A stretch of 64,000 nt of DNA from a virus, in IMG/VR virus record IMGVR_UViG_3300022602_000036, positions 64,001 to 128,000 of that record. One strand, 5' to 3'. Shown here piece after piece: positions 3,883 through 56,037 of the stretch. The stretch's first letter is position 1; every line of letters begins with the position of its first letter. Made by a program: the position numbers and the translations under genes. The notes under the pieces were generated by a model. The model made no database searches and had not been told where the DNA came from. It saw only the letters and a list, made by a program, of their open reading frames with translations.

Positions 3883-4089
3883 ATGAAATACAATAATTTA
3901 ACAAGAATTTGTGGTGGCAACATCACTCCGCAGGCACTCAAAGGAGTGTTTGCTGATCTAGAATTTCAAACTACTGCCGTAAAGCAAGAGTTTTGGGAGT
4001 ACATGTTTGAGATGGGTGAAGCCTTTGGAGACATTCAAAGCTTCGTAGTTCAAGATAGACAACAACAAGAAGGAGTAGTAAATGTTTAA
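3883..4089 (+). CDS. hypothetical protein (probable leaderless start at 3883)
   Basis: track start 3844 lies upstream of the promoter; in-frame ATG 3883 follows the -10 box. Confidence 0.6.
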   Translation: MKYNNLTRICGGNITPQALKGVFADLEFQTTAVKQEFWEYMFEMGEAFGDIQSFVVQDRQQQEGVVNV

Positions 4090-4393
4090 AGTAACAGGTA
4101 TTTCAACGTTAAATGGTAAGACCAAGGTTCGTTTTGCTAATGATCTAGTTAGCCGTGTTAAAATCTTAAACAAAGATGGTCACACAGACATTAACCTTAT
4201 CGAGTTACCAACAGCTATGTCTAAGTTAGACGCTGTAAACTACTTGAAAACCACAGACCTTTACAGTAAATTTGCAGCAGCAATTGACGCGGCAGATGAA
4301 AAGTATGCAGGTCTTGGCACTGTTAAAGTTACTAAGCCTAGCCTAGAAGCAATCAAGGCTCGTGCTGGTATCACTGAAACAGAAGCTGCCTGA
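4082..4393 (+). CDS. hypothetical phage protein (KVRFAND motif)
   Basis: 103 aa, SD AAGGAG, followed by terminator. Confidence 0.85.
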   Translation: MFKVTGISTLNGKTKVRFANDLVSRVKILNKDGHTDINLIELPTAMSKLDAVNYLKTTDLYSKFAAAIDAADEKYAGLGTVKVTKPSLEAIKARAGITETEAA

Positions 4394-5269: not shown

Positions 5270-5587
5270 ATGTCTAGAACACGTAGACGTAAGCGTGGCG
5301 ACCACACTGATCTAGCTTGGCAAACTAGAGAAATGATCAAAGTCCCAGGCAGATTAATTTGGGTGCCAATGGACCCAAAAACCAAGCAGTATAAACGAGT
5401 AGTAAACAAGTATCACAGTGATGCAGGCACACATAAGTTTAACAACTGTCCACAAGGATGGTGGGTTAACATGGTAATGCAAAGACCACATCGCCGTGAT
5501 GCTAAAAGAAAAATCCAAAAATGGTTGTTGGATCCAGAGTATGAAGTTATACTAAATGCTAAGGAACCACTTCCATATTGGGATTAA
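5270..5587 (+). CDS. basic hypothetical protein
   Basis: MSRTRRRKR..., SD GAGGAG. Confidence 0.8.
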   Translation: MSRTRRRKRGDHTDLAWQTREMIKVPGRLIWVPMDPKTKQYKRVVNKYHSDAGTHKFNNCPQGWWVNMVMQRPHRRDAKRKIQKWLLDPEYEVILNAKEPLPYWD

Positions 5588-5769
5588 AGAATTGTTGTAT
5601 GAAGCGAGTCCAAAAACGGACAAGACACGGGTTCGACTCCCGTCGCCTCCACCAAAGCATTTTTGAAAGAGAGTTTTTCGTTGGGGGTGCCATGGTATCG
5701 ATTGACGGCTTAGTAGGCAAGTGGACAACACAGTAGGCGATGACTGTAAATCAAGCAAAATCCGTAAAT

Positions 5770-5856
5770 GCAAAAGCATCTACACTTGGTACTGTAAAAG
5801 TATCTATGGGCCGCGGTTTCCGCTTTGCTCGTGGTACAGAAGCAGTAGCTGCCTAA
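5770..5856 (+). other. tmRNA tag reading frame AKASTLGTVKVSMGRGFRFARGTEAVAA*
   Basis: resume codon GCA after TAAAT; C-terminal AVAA; GCTG/CAGC hairpin around the stop. Confidence 0.85.
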
Positions 5857-5901
5857 GAAACAGCAACCACGGGGCAGTTATGCCTTGTTACCCAAAATAA
5901 C

Positions 5902-5923
5902 CAAACCCGCTTCGGCGGGTTTG
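5902..5923 (+). terminator. hairpin/terminator closing tmRNA gene
   Basis: CAAACCCGC-TTCG-GCGGGTTTG. Confidence 0.75.
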
Positions 5924-5940
5924 CTACCTCTAAAAAGAGG

Positions 5941-5969
5941 TTGACAACAATACCAAATGATACTATAAT
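5941..5969 (+). promoter_or_regulatory. sigma70-type early promoter
   Basis: TTGACA-N17-TATAAT. Confidence 0.85.
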
Positions 5970-6036
5970 AGTAACTAGTATGTCGTAGTTGGTTCTACGC
6001 ATACGTTAATTCAACTTTAGGACAAAGGAGAAATAT

Positions 6037-7335
6037 ATGTCACAAGCAACATCTTGGGTTAATCACTTGGCTGCTAACCCTGACCCAAAATATCCTAATC
6101 AAGGATACCCAGAAGTAATTGCTCAACGTTTTGGTAAAGATTTGGACCAAATACTTGGACCAGTATCCCAACGACGACCATATGACCAAATTAGTCAAAC
6201 AGAAGTAGAAAGCAGACTTGAATTAGTTGACGAAAAACTATTCCTTGCTAATATGCGTGGGGGCAAACAGCAACTTCTACAAACATTTTATGATTTGTTA
6301 GAGCACTTAGAAGATACTAAAGCATTATGGGGTATTGATATTCCTTTGATGAATATCATGCCAATGGAAGGCGTTGAACGCCACGCTGTAGAAAAGTTAT
6401 GGATTAACTATCGTTCACAGCGTACATTATATGCACGTCACATTGTTCAGATTGTTTTTAAATTTGATCCATGGAGTGTGTTTAATGGCATTGGGCGCAT
6501 GACTAAAGATTTAAAACGACTGTTTATCAATGATGCCCAACACCGTACTATTGCTTGTATGATTTTTGGTATTAGATATATGTCTGTACAATATCGCATC
6601 AGTGACGATGAAAACGTAGACATTGATCAGTTCTGTGCTTGTAATGTAGATAACCTACCGTCAGAAGCATACGATAACTATCGCAACCGTAAAGAACGTT
6701 GTGATGCTTATATCCAGGCTGATCGTCCACCGATCCGTGAAGATAAGTTTATGTGGGATATCGCACAATGGGCTCAACGTTGGGCTGTTAATATTTGTCG
6801 TGTAGGGGATCCTGTAGCTAACGGTGCAAGAGGTATTAGCCACATGGCAGATTTGTATAAATCTGCACGCATGGGATTTGACGTAATGGACGCTGCGGCA
6901 GCAGTGCTAGTTAAAGTTTACCCAAATGATCCAATGAAGTCAGCAAACTTAGTTGGACTATGCGAGTTATTGAAACAACAAGAACCCGAGTGGTTAGATG
7001 TAGACTACCAAGGTCCAAATAATTCAATCCTAAATCCTAAACTAGAGGATCTAGCTGAGATAATTGGAAAACGTTTTGGTAATGTAAACAAAGGTCAAAA
7101 TTCTGGTACATATCACGACCAATGTAAGCAAGCAATTAACAATTGGTATAAGGAAGCGTTTAATACTTTAAGTAACCCAAGTGGTATTGCACCTGAGGTA
7201 AAAGTTGCACACGCTACATATCACGTATATGATTCTTACAGTACCAAATATAAACTTACTGTGCCTAAAACAGAAAAAGGTGAGACATACAAAGTATTGT
7301 TATCATTCACAGAAGGATACAAAAAATGGATGTAG
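6037..7335 (+). CDS. ParB/Srx-superfamily (DGQHR-like) domain protein
   Basis: LWINYRSQR...FKFD...FINDAQHR...F..CN pattern resembles ParB-N/DGQHR-type domains; SD AAGGAG. Confidence 0.6.
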   Translation: MSQATSWVNHLAANPDPKYPNQGYPEVIAQRFGKDLDQILGPVSQRRPYDQISQTEVESRLELVDEKLFLANMRGGKQQLLQTFYDLLEHLEDTKALWGIDIPLMNIMPMEGVERHAVEKLWINYRSQRTLYARHIVQIVFKFDPWSVFNGIGRMTKDLKRLFINDAQHRTIACMIFGIRYMSVQYRISDDENVDIDQFCACNVDNLPSEAYDNYRNRKERCDAYIQADRPPIREDKFMWDIAQWAQRWAVNICRVGDPVANGARGISHMADLYKSARMGFDVMDAAAAVLVKVYPNDPMKSANLVGLCELLKQQEPEWLDVDYQGPNNSILNPKLEDLAEIIGKRFGNVNKGQNSGTYHDQCKQAINNWYKEAFNTLSNPSGIAPEVKVAHATYHVYDSYSTKYKLTVPKTEKGETYKVLLSFTEGYKKWM

Positions 7336-7757
7336 AACTAATTAACCAAAAGATTATTGAAGTAGAAAATAATCCATATCCGGATATGGATGAAGCAACT
7401 TATCTTAATAAAGATATTTGGTTTAAGGTAATTACAGGTAAAATGGATCTTAAAATGGTACAATGTATCTACTGGAGTATGCAACCGGAGTACGATGCAA
7501 CTCCGGAAGAGTTGTACAATATTAGTCCTGATTATCATAATGGTTTTAAGTTTTGTTATGGCCGCGGTAAGAATAGAGTAACTAGTGATGATATATTCTT
7601 ACCTAGTCCAGACCATGTGATTCCGCAAAAACACAACGGTCCGTCTACTATAGACAATCTTAAAATTGTTCCAAAGAAATATAATATTTGGAAACGAGAT
7701 ATGCTTAAAGAGGAATGGAATGACTTTAAAGTATGGATGGATAATCATTTAGAGTAG
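7326..7757 (+). CDS. HNH endonuclease-like protein
   Basis: SPDHVIPQKHNG....DNL......YN..K matches HNH core. Confidence 0.75.
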   Translation: MDVELINQKIIEVENNPYPDMDEATYLNKDIWFKVITGKMDLKMVQCIYWSMQPEYDATPEELYNISPDYHNGFKFCYGRGKNRVTSDDIFLPSPDHVIPQKHNGPSTIDNLKIVPKKYNIWKRDMLKEEWNDFKVWMDNHLE

Positions 7758-7873: not shown

Positions 7874-9795
<1,922 letters not shown>

Positions 9796-53733: not shown

Positions 53734-56037
53734 TTGGCTGACATGCAAAACAATCCTGAGATAGAACACATCATTAACACTGCCTGTGTTCTAGCCAAAG
53801 ACTACAAACATGAATATGTTACACTAGAACATCTATTAATTGCCTTAATAGAATCTAAAAACTTTAACAAGTTAGTCACTGACTATGGTGTTGATGTAGA
53901 AAATCTTCTACGCGACTTATATGATTATATTGGTCGTCAAACACATCTAGTCAACGAAATTAAACCAGATCTAACCCCAATGCGTACACACAGCCTAGAG
54001 CGTGTGTTTAATCGTGCATTTACACAGGTCTTGTTTAGTGCTCGTGATCAAATGGAACCTATTGATTTATTCTTGAGCATTAGTCAAGAACCTAATAGCC
54101 ATGCAGCATACTTTATGCTCAAATGGGGTATTAACCGCAAACAACTAATTGACTTTTTTGCAGAACAAAACAGCGATCGTTTTAATCGTGCTAAGAAAGT
54201 TGAAAGTACTAAGAAAGACTTTGCTGATAAGATTCTAGCAGAATACTGCACAGACTTAAACGCACAGGTCGTAGAAGGTAAGATTGATCCCGTAATTGGT
54301 CGTGCTTATGAATTAGAAGAAATTGCACAGGTTCTAGCACGTCGTAATAAATCCAATGTACTTATGATTGGTGATCCTGGTGTGGGCAAGACTGCTATTG
54401 CAGAAGGCCTAGCATATAAGATTGTCAATGGTGAAGTACCAGAATATTTAAAACCTTACACAGTATTCAACTTAGAAATTGGCAGTTTACTAGCTGGTAG
54501 TAAGTATCGTGGCGAGTTTGAAGAAAAACTCAAAGATGTACTACACGCCCTAGGTCAAAAAGGCAACTCAATCTTGTTTATTGATGAAGCACATCAAATG
54601 CAAGGTGCTGGGTCAGGTGGCTCTAGTCAAGTAGACTTTGCTAATATGCTTAAACCAGCATTGGCCAAGGGCAAGATTAAAGTTATTGCATCAACTACGT
54701 TTGAAGAGTATACTCAATCGTTTGAAAAAGATCGTGCGCTAATGCGCAGATTCTACAAACTAAATGTAGATGAACCTACGCCAGCTGTGGCCAAAGATAT
54801 CTTGTACGGATTAAGAACACACTTTGAAAAATTCCACGGCGGGGTTATCACAGATGATGCTATTGAAGCCGCAGTGGATCTAAGTGTACGTTATCAAACA
54901 GACAAACGTTTGCCAGACAAGGCCATTGATTTGATTGACATGAGTTCAGCTAAACTTAAGATTCAAAATCCAGACTTTGTAGTTACTAAACTAGACATTG
55001 TTGATACTATCAGCAAAGCCACTAAGATTCCTAAAGAGAATTTGTTAAGTGAAAAAGCCACAGAAAGTCTAGTTAACCTTGAAGCTACAATCAAGGACAA
55101 ACTATACGGCCAAGATAGTGCTGTAGATCAAGTATTAGAAAAGATCTATGTTGCCAAAGCTGGTATGAAATCACACAACAAGCCTGTAGGTAACTTCTTG
55201 TTCCTAGGACCAACTGGTACTGGTAAAACAGAACTATGTAAACTACTCAGCGAATCGTTGAGCATGAAACTCTTACGCTTTGATATGAGTGAATATCAAG
55301 AGAAGCATGCTATGGCTAAACTTATTGGTGCTCCCCCAGGCTATGTTGGCTATGAAGACGGCAATCTAGGTGGTGGCTTATTGATCAGTGAAATTGAACG
55401 TAACCCACATGCTATTATCTTGTTAGATGAAATTGAAAAAGCACACCCAGATATCAGTAACTTATTGTTACAGATCATGGATGAGGGCTACATTACAGGA
55501 TCTAACGGTAAGAAAGCAGATGCACGTCACTGTATCCTTATCCTTACTTCAAATCTAGGTGCTGCAGATGGTGAACAAAATGCTATTGGTTTTGGTAGAT
55601 CATTGCAAAAAGAAGGCACAGATGACGAAGCGGCTAAGAAGTTCTTTAAACCAGAATTCCGTAACAGACTTGATGCTGTAGTTAAGTTTGGTAAACTTGA
55701 TAAATTGGCTATGAAGAAAATTGTTGTCAAATTCTTAAATGAATTAAATGACCTACTAGAAGAAAAGAATATCAAAGTTCGTTCATCAGAAGCCCTAGTA
55801 GATCACTTAACAGAAGTTGGATTTGATCCTGCAATGGGCGCACGCCCGCTAGCACGTAAGATTAACGAACTTATCAAAGTACCGCTAAGTAAGAAAATCT
55901 TATTTGAGCACATAGAATCTGGTAGTGTAGTTACCGCTGATTACAGTGAAGATGTTGTTAAATTTATTGTAATTCCGCCTGCACTTGATCTATTAGAAAA
56001 CAAAACCGTTGACGAAAACGGCTACATTGTAGCATAA
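53734..56037 (+). CDS. clpA: ClpA-type AAA+ unfoldase
   Basis: N-domain [10 protein letters not shown]; Walker A GDPGVGKT and GPTGTGKT; IGF ClpP-docking loop; no ClpB middle domain. Confidence 0.93.

Follow-up and report, generated by a model that had tools for sequence, protein, structure and literature searches.

The tags written by tmRNA are a textbook example of an RNA-encoded degradation signal, and the sequence of the tag sets which protease or adaptor sees the product. A long ssrA tag of about 27 residues in Mycoplasma, described by Gur and Sauer in 2008, is said to be read by Lon instead of ClpXP. In phages, two-piece tmRNAs are established: 53 unique two-piece forms were counted among 402 tmRNA-bearing phage genomes, all from isolates and mostly aquatic (Buchholz et al., PMC9004378), and their proposed role is to support or redirect ribosome rescue in infection (PMC9004378). 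The tmRNA database holds 79 phage sequences, with a commonest tag length of 10 aa (PMC11915505). An earlier note on the locus described here, which named only bacterial groups as carriers of two-piece tmRNAs, was thus incomplete in its list and overstated the novelty of a phage form, since such forms are published (PMC9004378). The phage two-piece tmRNA is already known; what is new is a 28-residue tag with a core conserved in about 25 phage contigs.

The window, by which we mean the whole 64,000-nt stretch analysed, comprises bases 64001–128000 of an IMG/VR virus record; the record is 149 kb long, with a CheckV completeness of 42%. ARAGORN reports a permuted tmRNA with a 28-aa tag at 5562–5947(+), the sole gene of its output in the window. 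The Rfam model RF04321 (tmRNA_permuted) matches at 5593–5856 with 112.8 bits (E 3e-21; cut-off 47) and RF01850 (beta_tmRNA) at 5539–5890 with 98 bits (cut-off 84), both above the gathering cut-offs. ARAGORN and permuted-tmRNA models were the searches proposed in the earlier note, and both call the gene; together with the phage gene context they bear out its claim of a phage-encoded, circularly permuted tmRNA. The parts of the gene are as follows.

5593–5925, + strand: circularly permuted tmRNA gene (ARAGORN, Rfam)
5593–5654, + strand: acceptor piece, with the 3'-side strands of P2, T-arm, acceptor 3' strand, discriminator A and CCA (Rfam alignment, ARAGORN 3' tRNA domain, stem check)
5627–5643, + strand: T-arm (sequence read against the Rfam and ARAGORN alignments)
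5644–5650, + strand: acceptor 3' strand, CGCCUCC (Rfam alignment, stem check)
5651, + strand: discriminator A
5652–5654, + strand: encoded CCA
5655–5682, + strand: intervening segment of 28 nt between the acceptor and coding pieces
5683–5925, + strand: coding piece, with acceptor 5' strand, P2 strands to 5730, PK1 hairpin, tag frame, P5, 3' pseudoknot and terminator-like hairpin (ARAGORN, Rfam)
5683–5689, + strand: acceptor 5' strand, GGGGGUG, in a 7-bp acceptor stem that includes G3.U70
5593–5598 with 5725–5730, + strand: P2 outer helix, UGUUG(U) with (A)CAACA (core pairs 5593–5597/5726–5730)
5731–5746, + strand: PK1 hairpin (fits the Rfam model)
5770–5856, + strand: tag frame, with resume codon GCA at 5770–5772, 28 codons at 5770–5853 and stop UAA at 5854–5856 (ARAGORN; both ends match the RF04321 consensus)
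5797–5826, + strand: tag core KVSMGRGFRF (peptide conservation), also the apex of an in-frame hairpin
5848–5864, + strand: P5 hairpin, GCUG 5848–5851 pairing with CAGC 5861–5864, its loop containing the stop codon (covariation)
5871–5901, + strand: H-type pseudoknot 3' of the tag frame, S1 5871–5876/5881–5886 and S2 5877–5880/5898–5901 (covariation)
5903–5925, + strand: G+C-rich hairpin and then UUUGCU, where the coding piece probably ends (sequence, relatives)

The layout agrees with what had been read from the letters: the sequence and the alignments have the 3' half upstream of the 5' half, with the CCA ending at 5654, a 28-nt linker and the 5' strand starting at 5683, and the suggested pairing of TGTTGT (5593–5598) with ACAACA (5725–5730) is found as P2. 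The alanine-type acceptor stem claimed there also stands, being paired at 7/7 positions with G3.U70 invariant in all 22 of the first-found members. At acceptor positions 4–6 these members differ by compensatory changes (G-C, C-G, U-A, A-U), and their T stems covary too. The encoded CCA of the window is absent in L138 and L155, and L379/L380 have ACCU after the acceptor strand. In L145-type loci, L378, L379 and L380 the UUCGAnU T-loop is swapped for GGCAGnn or GGCGGAG, and ARAGORN then misses those tmRNAs. In PK1 a single compensatory change was seen, in L370, and a second PK1 stem was not identified.

The spacer between the two pieces ranges from 26 to 194 nt in relatives, where its sequence is unrelated; by analogy with known two-piece tmRNAs it is presumably excised from the precursor. 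The 194-nt spacer of L135/L141 (G001) contains an ATG-started open frame of ~70 codons that continues into the coding piece; it may be a small gene inserted in the spacer, or a chance occurrence.

Downstream of the tag frame, an alignment of 14 distinct 3' regions was used to test covariation in the P5 hairpin and both pseudoknot stems, with slid controls and 500 shuffles. In these helices 93% of cells are paired, compared with 31–48% in the slid controls, and 8 pairs are changed on both sides, a result equalled in 0/500 shuffles; P5 has both-sided changes in 3/4 of its pairs. The second pseudoknot that the earlier note had drawn from a single sequence is real and covaries across 14 distinct relatives. 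The T run after the terminal hairpin is weak in the window and stronger in relatives, and a + strand consensus scan did not call the hairpin as a terminator. No riboswitch or other RNA family was found in the 3' domain.

The tag frame proposed earlier is the one that ARAGORN gives, residue for residue. Its resume codon GCA is preceded by a canonical UAAAU, it ends in A-V-A-A followed by the stop, and its open frame and peptide core are kept in relatives. In L142/L145-type tmRNAs two in-frame UAAAU-GCA contexts lie 15 nt apart, which would allow a tag of 30 residues or one of 35, according to the context used. A collection of tags from related phages had been suggested as a check. By searching with a degenerate DNA pattern built on the ten residues of the core, we found homologous permuted tmRNAs with tags of 28–30 aa around KVSMGRGFRF in 21 other viral contigs, each of the 21 matches being a permuted tmRNA whose tag frame contains the core. 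Such a scan fixes the core by construction, and three tag-blind searches, with a T-arm/acceptor 31-mer, clpP and groEL, were therefore added. The 31-nt T-arm/acceptor sequence, which is the commonest in the family but differs from that of the window, was found in 119 viral contigs: most have ordinary ~10-residue tags of the ANDERFALAA type, ten have the exact core and a few have other long tags. The clpP-guided search retrieved six members, each with the core, and the groEL-guided search returned known members and four new ones with conservative core variants; these four are the closest relatives of the window (86–94% GroEL identity). Homologous tags, one of 28 and one of 29 residues, are also encoded by the permuted tmRNAs of two syntenic relatives found via the virion protein. 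The collection thus stands at about 25 related phage contigs with a conserved core, whose consensus is K-V-[SA]-M-[GN]-[RK]-[GND]-F-R-F.

Among 17 distinct tags the K, V, M, F, R and F of the core are invariant while their codons vary (GTA/GTG, CGC/CGT, TTT/TTC). One member keeps the core serine across a codon-family switch from TCT to AGT, and a core Arg is changed to Lys via three base changes. All indels in the tag are of whole codons, so that the frame is kept in 17/17 distinct relatives, and the flanks of the core vary freely at every codon position. Because invariant residues are combined with synonymous variation, with the serine codon-family switch and with whole-codon indels, the comparison bears the signature of a core that is translated and selected as a peptide. 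The core pattern is absent from the genomes of 185,579 bacterial and archaeal species, scanned at one genome each, and no mention of the motif was found in the literature searched. When the gene was compared by blastn with 50,697 phage records, the only match was a 40-nt T-arm stretch in Brevundimonas phages, and no cultured relative was found.

The extra length of the tag is placed by the RF04321 alignment, in which both frame ends align to the consensus and 46 mid-frame bases are unaligned; it is therefore an insertion within the frame. This corrects the earlier suggestion that a basic, aromatic segment replaces the adaptor-binding part of the tag: most family members still start with A-N-(A/E)-N, and the window with A-K-A-S. 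The AA degron said to be kept at the C-terminus is present in the window as A-V-A-A, but some relatives end in T-F-A, V-L-A or V-L-V, and the C-terminal degron is thus not uniform. The description of the tag as unusually long holds, since 10 aa is the commonest length (PMC11915505), but the tag is not unique in this, as other viral permuted tmRNAs have tags of 24–31 aa. Such long-tag families (26–31 aa) on phage permuted tmRNAs are seen in L167, L203, L247 and L249, and in L370 (G078). Sister phages have mostly ordinary 10-aa tags and some have other long-tag variants.

It could be argued that the inserted segment is kept mainly as an RNA hairpin, which shapes or stabilises a long mRNA-like domain, with the peptide a tolerated by-product. 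The centre of the tag does fold as a hairpin in every variant, and all four pairs of its apical stem are kept in 17/17 sequences through matched changes, two of the pairs being compensatory. Gly-to-Asn/Asp and Arg-to-Lys changes in the 5' arm are offset by synonymous changes in the 3' arm, and in L157 a GUA-to-GUG change is matched by CGU-to-CGC. However, randomisation of synonymous codons leaves the folding energy almost unchanged (z mostly −0.1 to −1.7, with 1/14 at −2.8 and one at +0.3), and so we take the hairpin to be real, though mostly a consequence of the Gly/Arg/Ala-rich peptide. The compensatory cases are also drawn from few closely related sequences, and selection on the peptide is indicated by the serine switch, the conservative Arg-to-Lys change and six residues that stay invariant while their codons vary. 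We consider it unlikely that the segment is kept mainly for its RNA fold. The core is nonetheless the apex of a hairpin, two of whose pairs are compensatory; its conservation may thus in part reflect constraint on the RNA, and both levels may be under selection.

The surroundings of the gene are those of a phage. The record encodes a 1292-aa virion protein related to T4-like cyanomyovirus virion proteins, as well as a tail-fibre-like protein and GroEL, and since the genes of the record are phage genes, we take the tmRNA gene, on this content, to be phage-encoded. One relative is 329 kb long with terminal repeats and others are 331–354 kb; the record is a fragment of an uncultured jumbo phage from a freshwater lineage of 300–350 kb. 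In 15/15 loci compared the gene order is the same: a TraR-like gene, clpP, variable genes, a conserved 103-aa gene (4082–4393 in the window, with no family match), the tmRNA, variable genes and groES-groEL. Between the tmRNA and groES, at 5941–7757 of the window, a perfect σ70 consensus promoter (TTGACA, 17 nt, TATAAT) precedes a 432-aa gene and an overlapping HNH gene. This cassette is missing from most relatives and shares 69% DNA identity with L120, a contig that is unrelated elsewhere; it looks like a mobile insertion. The 432-aa gene was of no use as a guide to syntenic relatives, its sole relative, L120, having just the two-gene cassette and no tmRNA.

These surroundings bear on the idea that the phage acquired the gene from a host by accident, or that it marks a former integration site, and that it does nothing for the phage. 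Many tmRNA matches in viral contigs are indeed prophage ends, many such loci lacking a complete gene. The gene of the window, in contrast, is complete and has structural and chaperone genes around it, and its synteny holds across about 25 contigs, with covariation in its helices. Its core was not found in the bacterial genomes searched, and the exact family 31-mer occurs in 119 viral but only 8 bacterial contigs. We find an accidental acquisition hardly credible. The 8 bacterial contigs belong to Cupriavidus and to two CPR metagenome-assembled genomes. The Cupriavidus contigs (L284–L289) carry the exact 31-mer, twice in one strain, and these copies may be a prophage- or plasmid-borne second ssrA.

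The phage also encodes genes of protein turnover and folding, which in the window lie as follows.

816–1082: 88-aa DksA/TraR-type zinc-finger protein, its frame touching clpP
1083–1703, + strand: clpP, with Ser-His-Asp in place (PF00574, 217 bits; aligned to solved ClpP structures; NCBIfam)
7874–9795, + strand: groES-groEL, next downstream of the tmRNA in the phage lineage
52853–53710: dnaJ (J domain and C-terminal domain), directly upstream of the ClpA-like gene
53734–56037, + strand: ClpA-like two-ring AAA+ unfoldase of 767 aa (ClpA model match)

The phage ClpP has an insertion of ~12 residues relative to bacterial ClpP. The ClpA-like protein has a Clp_N domain and two AAA rings, matches the ClpA model over its full length in a single stretch, lacks the ClpB middle domain and has an IGF motif at the site of the ClpP-docking loops. 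Together with dnaJ and groESL, these genes form a broad chaperone and protease set that looks like a proteostasis module. Genes for SmpB, ClpX and a CCA-adding enzyme are absent from the record and from complete relatives; host factors would therefore be needed for these functions. Two neighbours of clpP were rejected as partners: the 88-aa gene before it, considered as an adaptor, is the DksA/TraR zinc finger, and a 390-aa gene overlapping its end is present in only 3/21 contigs.

Phage ClpP and the ClpA-like protein are possible readers of the tag. The strongest form of this proposal is that the core, K-V-[SA]-M-x-[RK]-x-F-R-F, is a second degron or docking element evolved by the phage, through which rescued chains would go to the phage ClpA-like/ClpP protease, perhaps to GroEL, and not to host SspB/ClpXP, apart from chains tagged by the host. 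It draws on the presence in the phage of ClpP, an unfoldase with an IGF loop, DnaJ and GroES/GroEL, on the position of the tmRNA between clpP and groESL in every locus compared, and on four near-complete sister phages without the window's tag type (tags of ~10 aa in three and another 28-aa tag in the fourth) in which groEL is absent as well. It also draws on a weak resemblance of the core to the N-terminal ClpX degron of lambda O, TNTAKILNFGR (as used in PMC12723719): the core and the residues just before it share T-[AV]-K-[IV], two or three residues and G-R-G. This comparison was however chosen post hoc (shuffle p 0.01–0.07), and the lambda O degron acts at the N-terminus. ClpP and the ClpA-like gene are also carried by sister phages with ordinary 10-aa tags, and the tmRNA is adjacent to groESL with short tags too (L399, L411).

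Co-occurrence likewise proved unsuitable as an argument for functional coupling between ClpP and the tmRNA. All 21 long-tag contigs have ClpP, but this ClpP type (76–91% identity) is present in at least 598 IMG/VR viral contigs; a tmRNA lies within 8 kb in only 7 of the 80 loci whose ClpP is most similar, and of 29 other full-length ClpP loci all have wholly different neighbours and 28 have no tmRNA (the exception, L313, has a short-tag tmRNA). Because this ClpP type has other neighbours elsewhere, and because sisters with ordinary tags share ClpP and the ClpA-like gene, the linkage is, as judged from these loci, the gene order of one lineage and a matter of shared ancestry, not evidence of coupling, and it counts as one evolutionary event. 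We therefore hold delivery to the phage's own protease or to GroEL to be doubtful. In L281 (G002:C1:46409-48672), a complete 162-kb T4-like relative, a short-tag permuted tmRNA lies 1.5 kb upstream of a distant ClpP-like gene with 29% identity to that of the window, a second, independent tmRNA-clpP adjacency.

We prefer, with a probability of roughly 60%, to read the locus as a functional two-piece tmRNA gene of a jumbo phage, whose inserted basic/aromatic core would serve as a second recognition or spacing element. Following established tmRNA biology, RNase P would cut at G5683 and trimming would end at the CCA at 5654, with loss of the spacer, and both RNAs would remain paired and be charged with alanine by host AlaRS. 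Host SmpB, proposed because the phage has none, would deliver them to stalled ribosomes; translation would resume at GCA 5770, add 28 residues and stop at UAA 5854, and the A-V-A-A end would act as a Clp-type degron. Our best guess for the core is that it alters which unfoldase or adaptor takes the tagged chains, the candidate handlers being host ClpX/ClpA, or the phage ClpA-like protein with phage ClpP. It is plausible, as the earlier note proposed, that tagged proteins would be routed differently from host-tagged ones.

The lack of a phage SmpB would also suit a decoy, an RNA that titrates host SmpB and blocks host trans-translation with a tag of no importance, and a gene with only the tRNA-like domain in mycobacteriophage DS6A is a precedent for titrating SmpB (PMC4131195, PMC11915505). 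A pure decoy would however need none of the conserved resume context, the frame of 28–30 codons, the stop-codon hairpin or the peptide core, and we regard this as highly improbable. In one giant-phage lineage a tag three times as long as usual has become fixed, with its core kept as a peptide and found in no bacterium searched. Long-tag phages offer a concrete case for asking if viruses re-address the output of host ribosome rescue, and sisters with ordinary 10-residue tags, or with different long tags, are natural controls. Were the core truly a docking element, it would give the phage a private tag-and-degrade channel during cell takeover; were it merely tolerated, this would be just one more phage tmRNA.

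Compared with the betaproteobacterial two-piece tmRNA (RF01850; merged RF04321), the gene has the same order of acceptor piece, spacer and coding piece, a G3.U70 tRNA-like domain, UAAAU-GCA, an A-x-A-A end, the stop in the P5 loop and a downstream pseudoknot. It differs in being phage-encoded and in its tag, of 28 residues instead of about 10 by a mid-frame insertion. Some phage relatives score best with the alpha model, and the family is thus not cleanly of one bacterial type. The two-piece tmRNAs of OM43 phage Melnitz and of pelagimyophages (PMC9004378) are similar in belonging to mostly aquatic, lytic-type myoviruses with a complete permuted ssrA and no smpB. Here, by contrast, the window has no glutamine riboswitch and the lineage is another one, of 300–350-kb freshwater jumbo phages. 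The long tag of Mycoplasma is a precedent for extra length that goes with a change of protease, but it belongs to a bacterial one-piece tmRNA, its sequence is unrelated, and Clp is absent there whereas Clp components are present in the phage.

Closest in kind are the other long phage tags, those of the F-T-G-N-T-V family (26–31 aa) and the 28-aa tag of G078, which have the same or a similar tRNA-like domain. Their middle segments are different, and they end in an A-N-x-E-R-F-x-L-A-A unit, which in L370 (G078) is the ordinary A-N-A-E-R-F-E-L-A-A. G078 also has the sequence from PK1 to the resume codon and the first residues, A-K-T-S-T, in common with the family of the window. Since it shares the upstream RNA and first residues, differs in mid-tag and ends as an ordinary tag, long tags appear to arise by extension within the frame, which in the F-T-G-N-T-V and G078 tags suggests an extension ahead of an ordinary tag.
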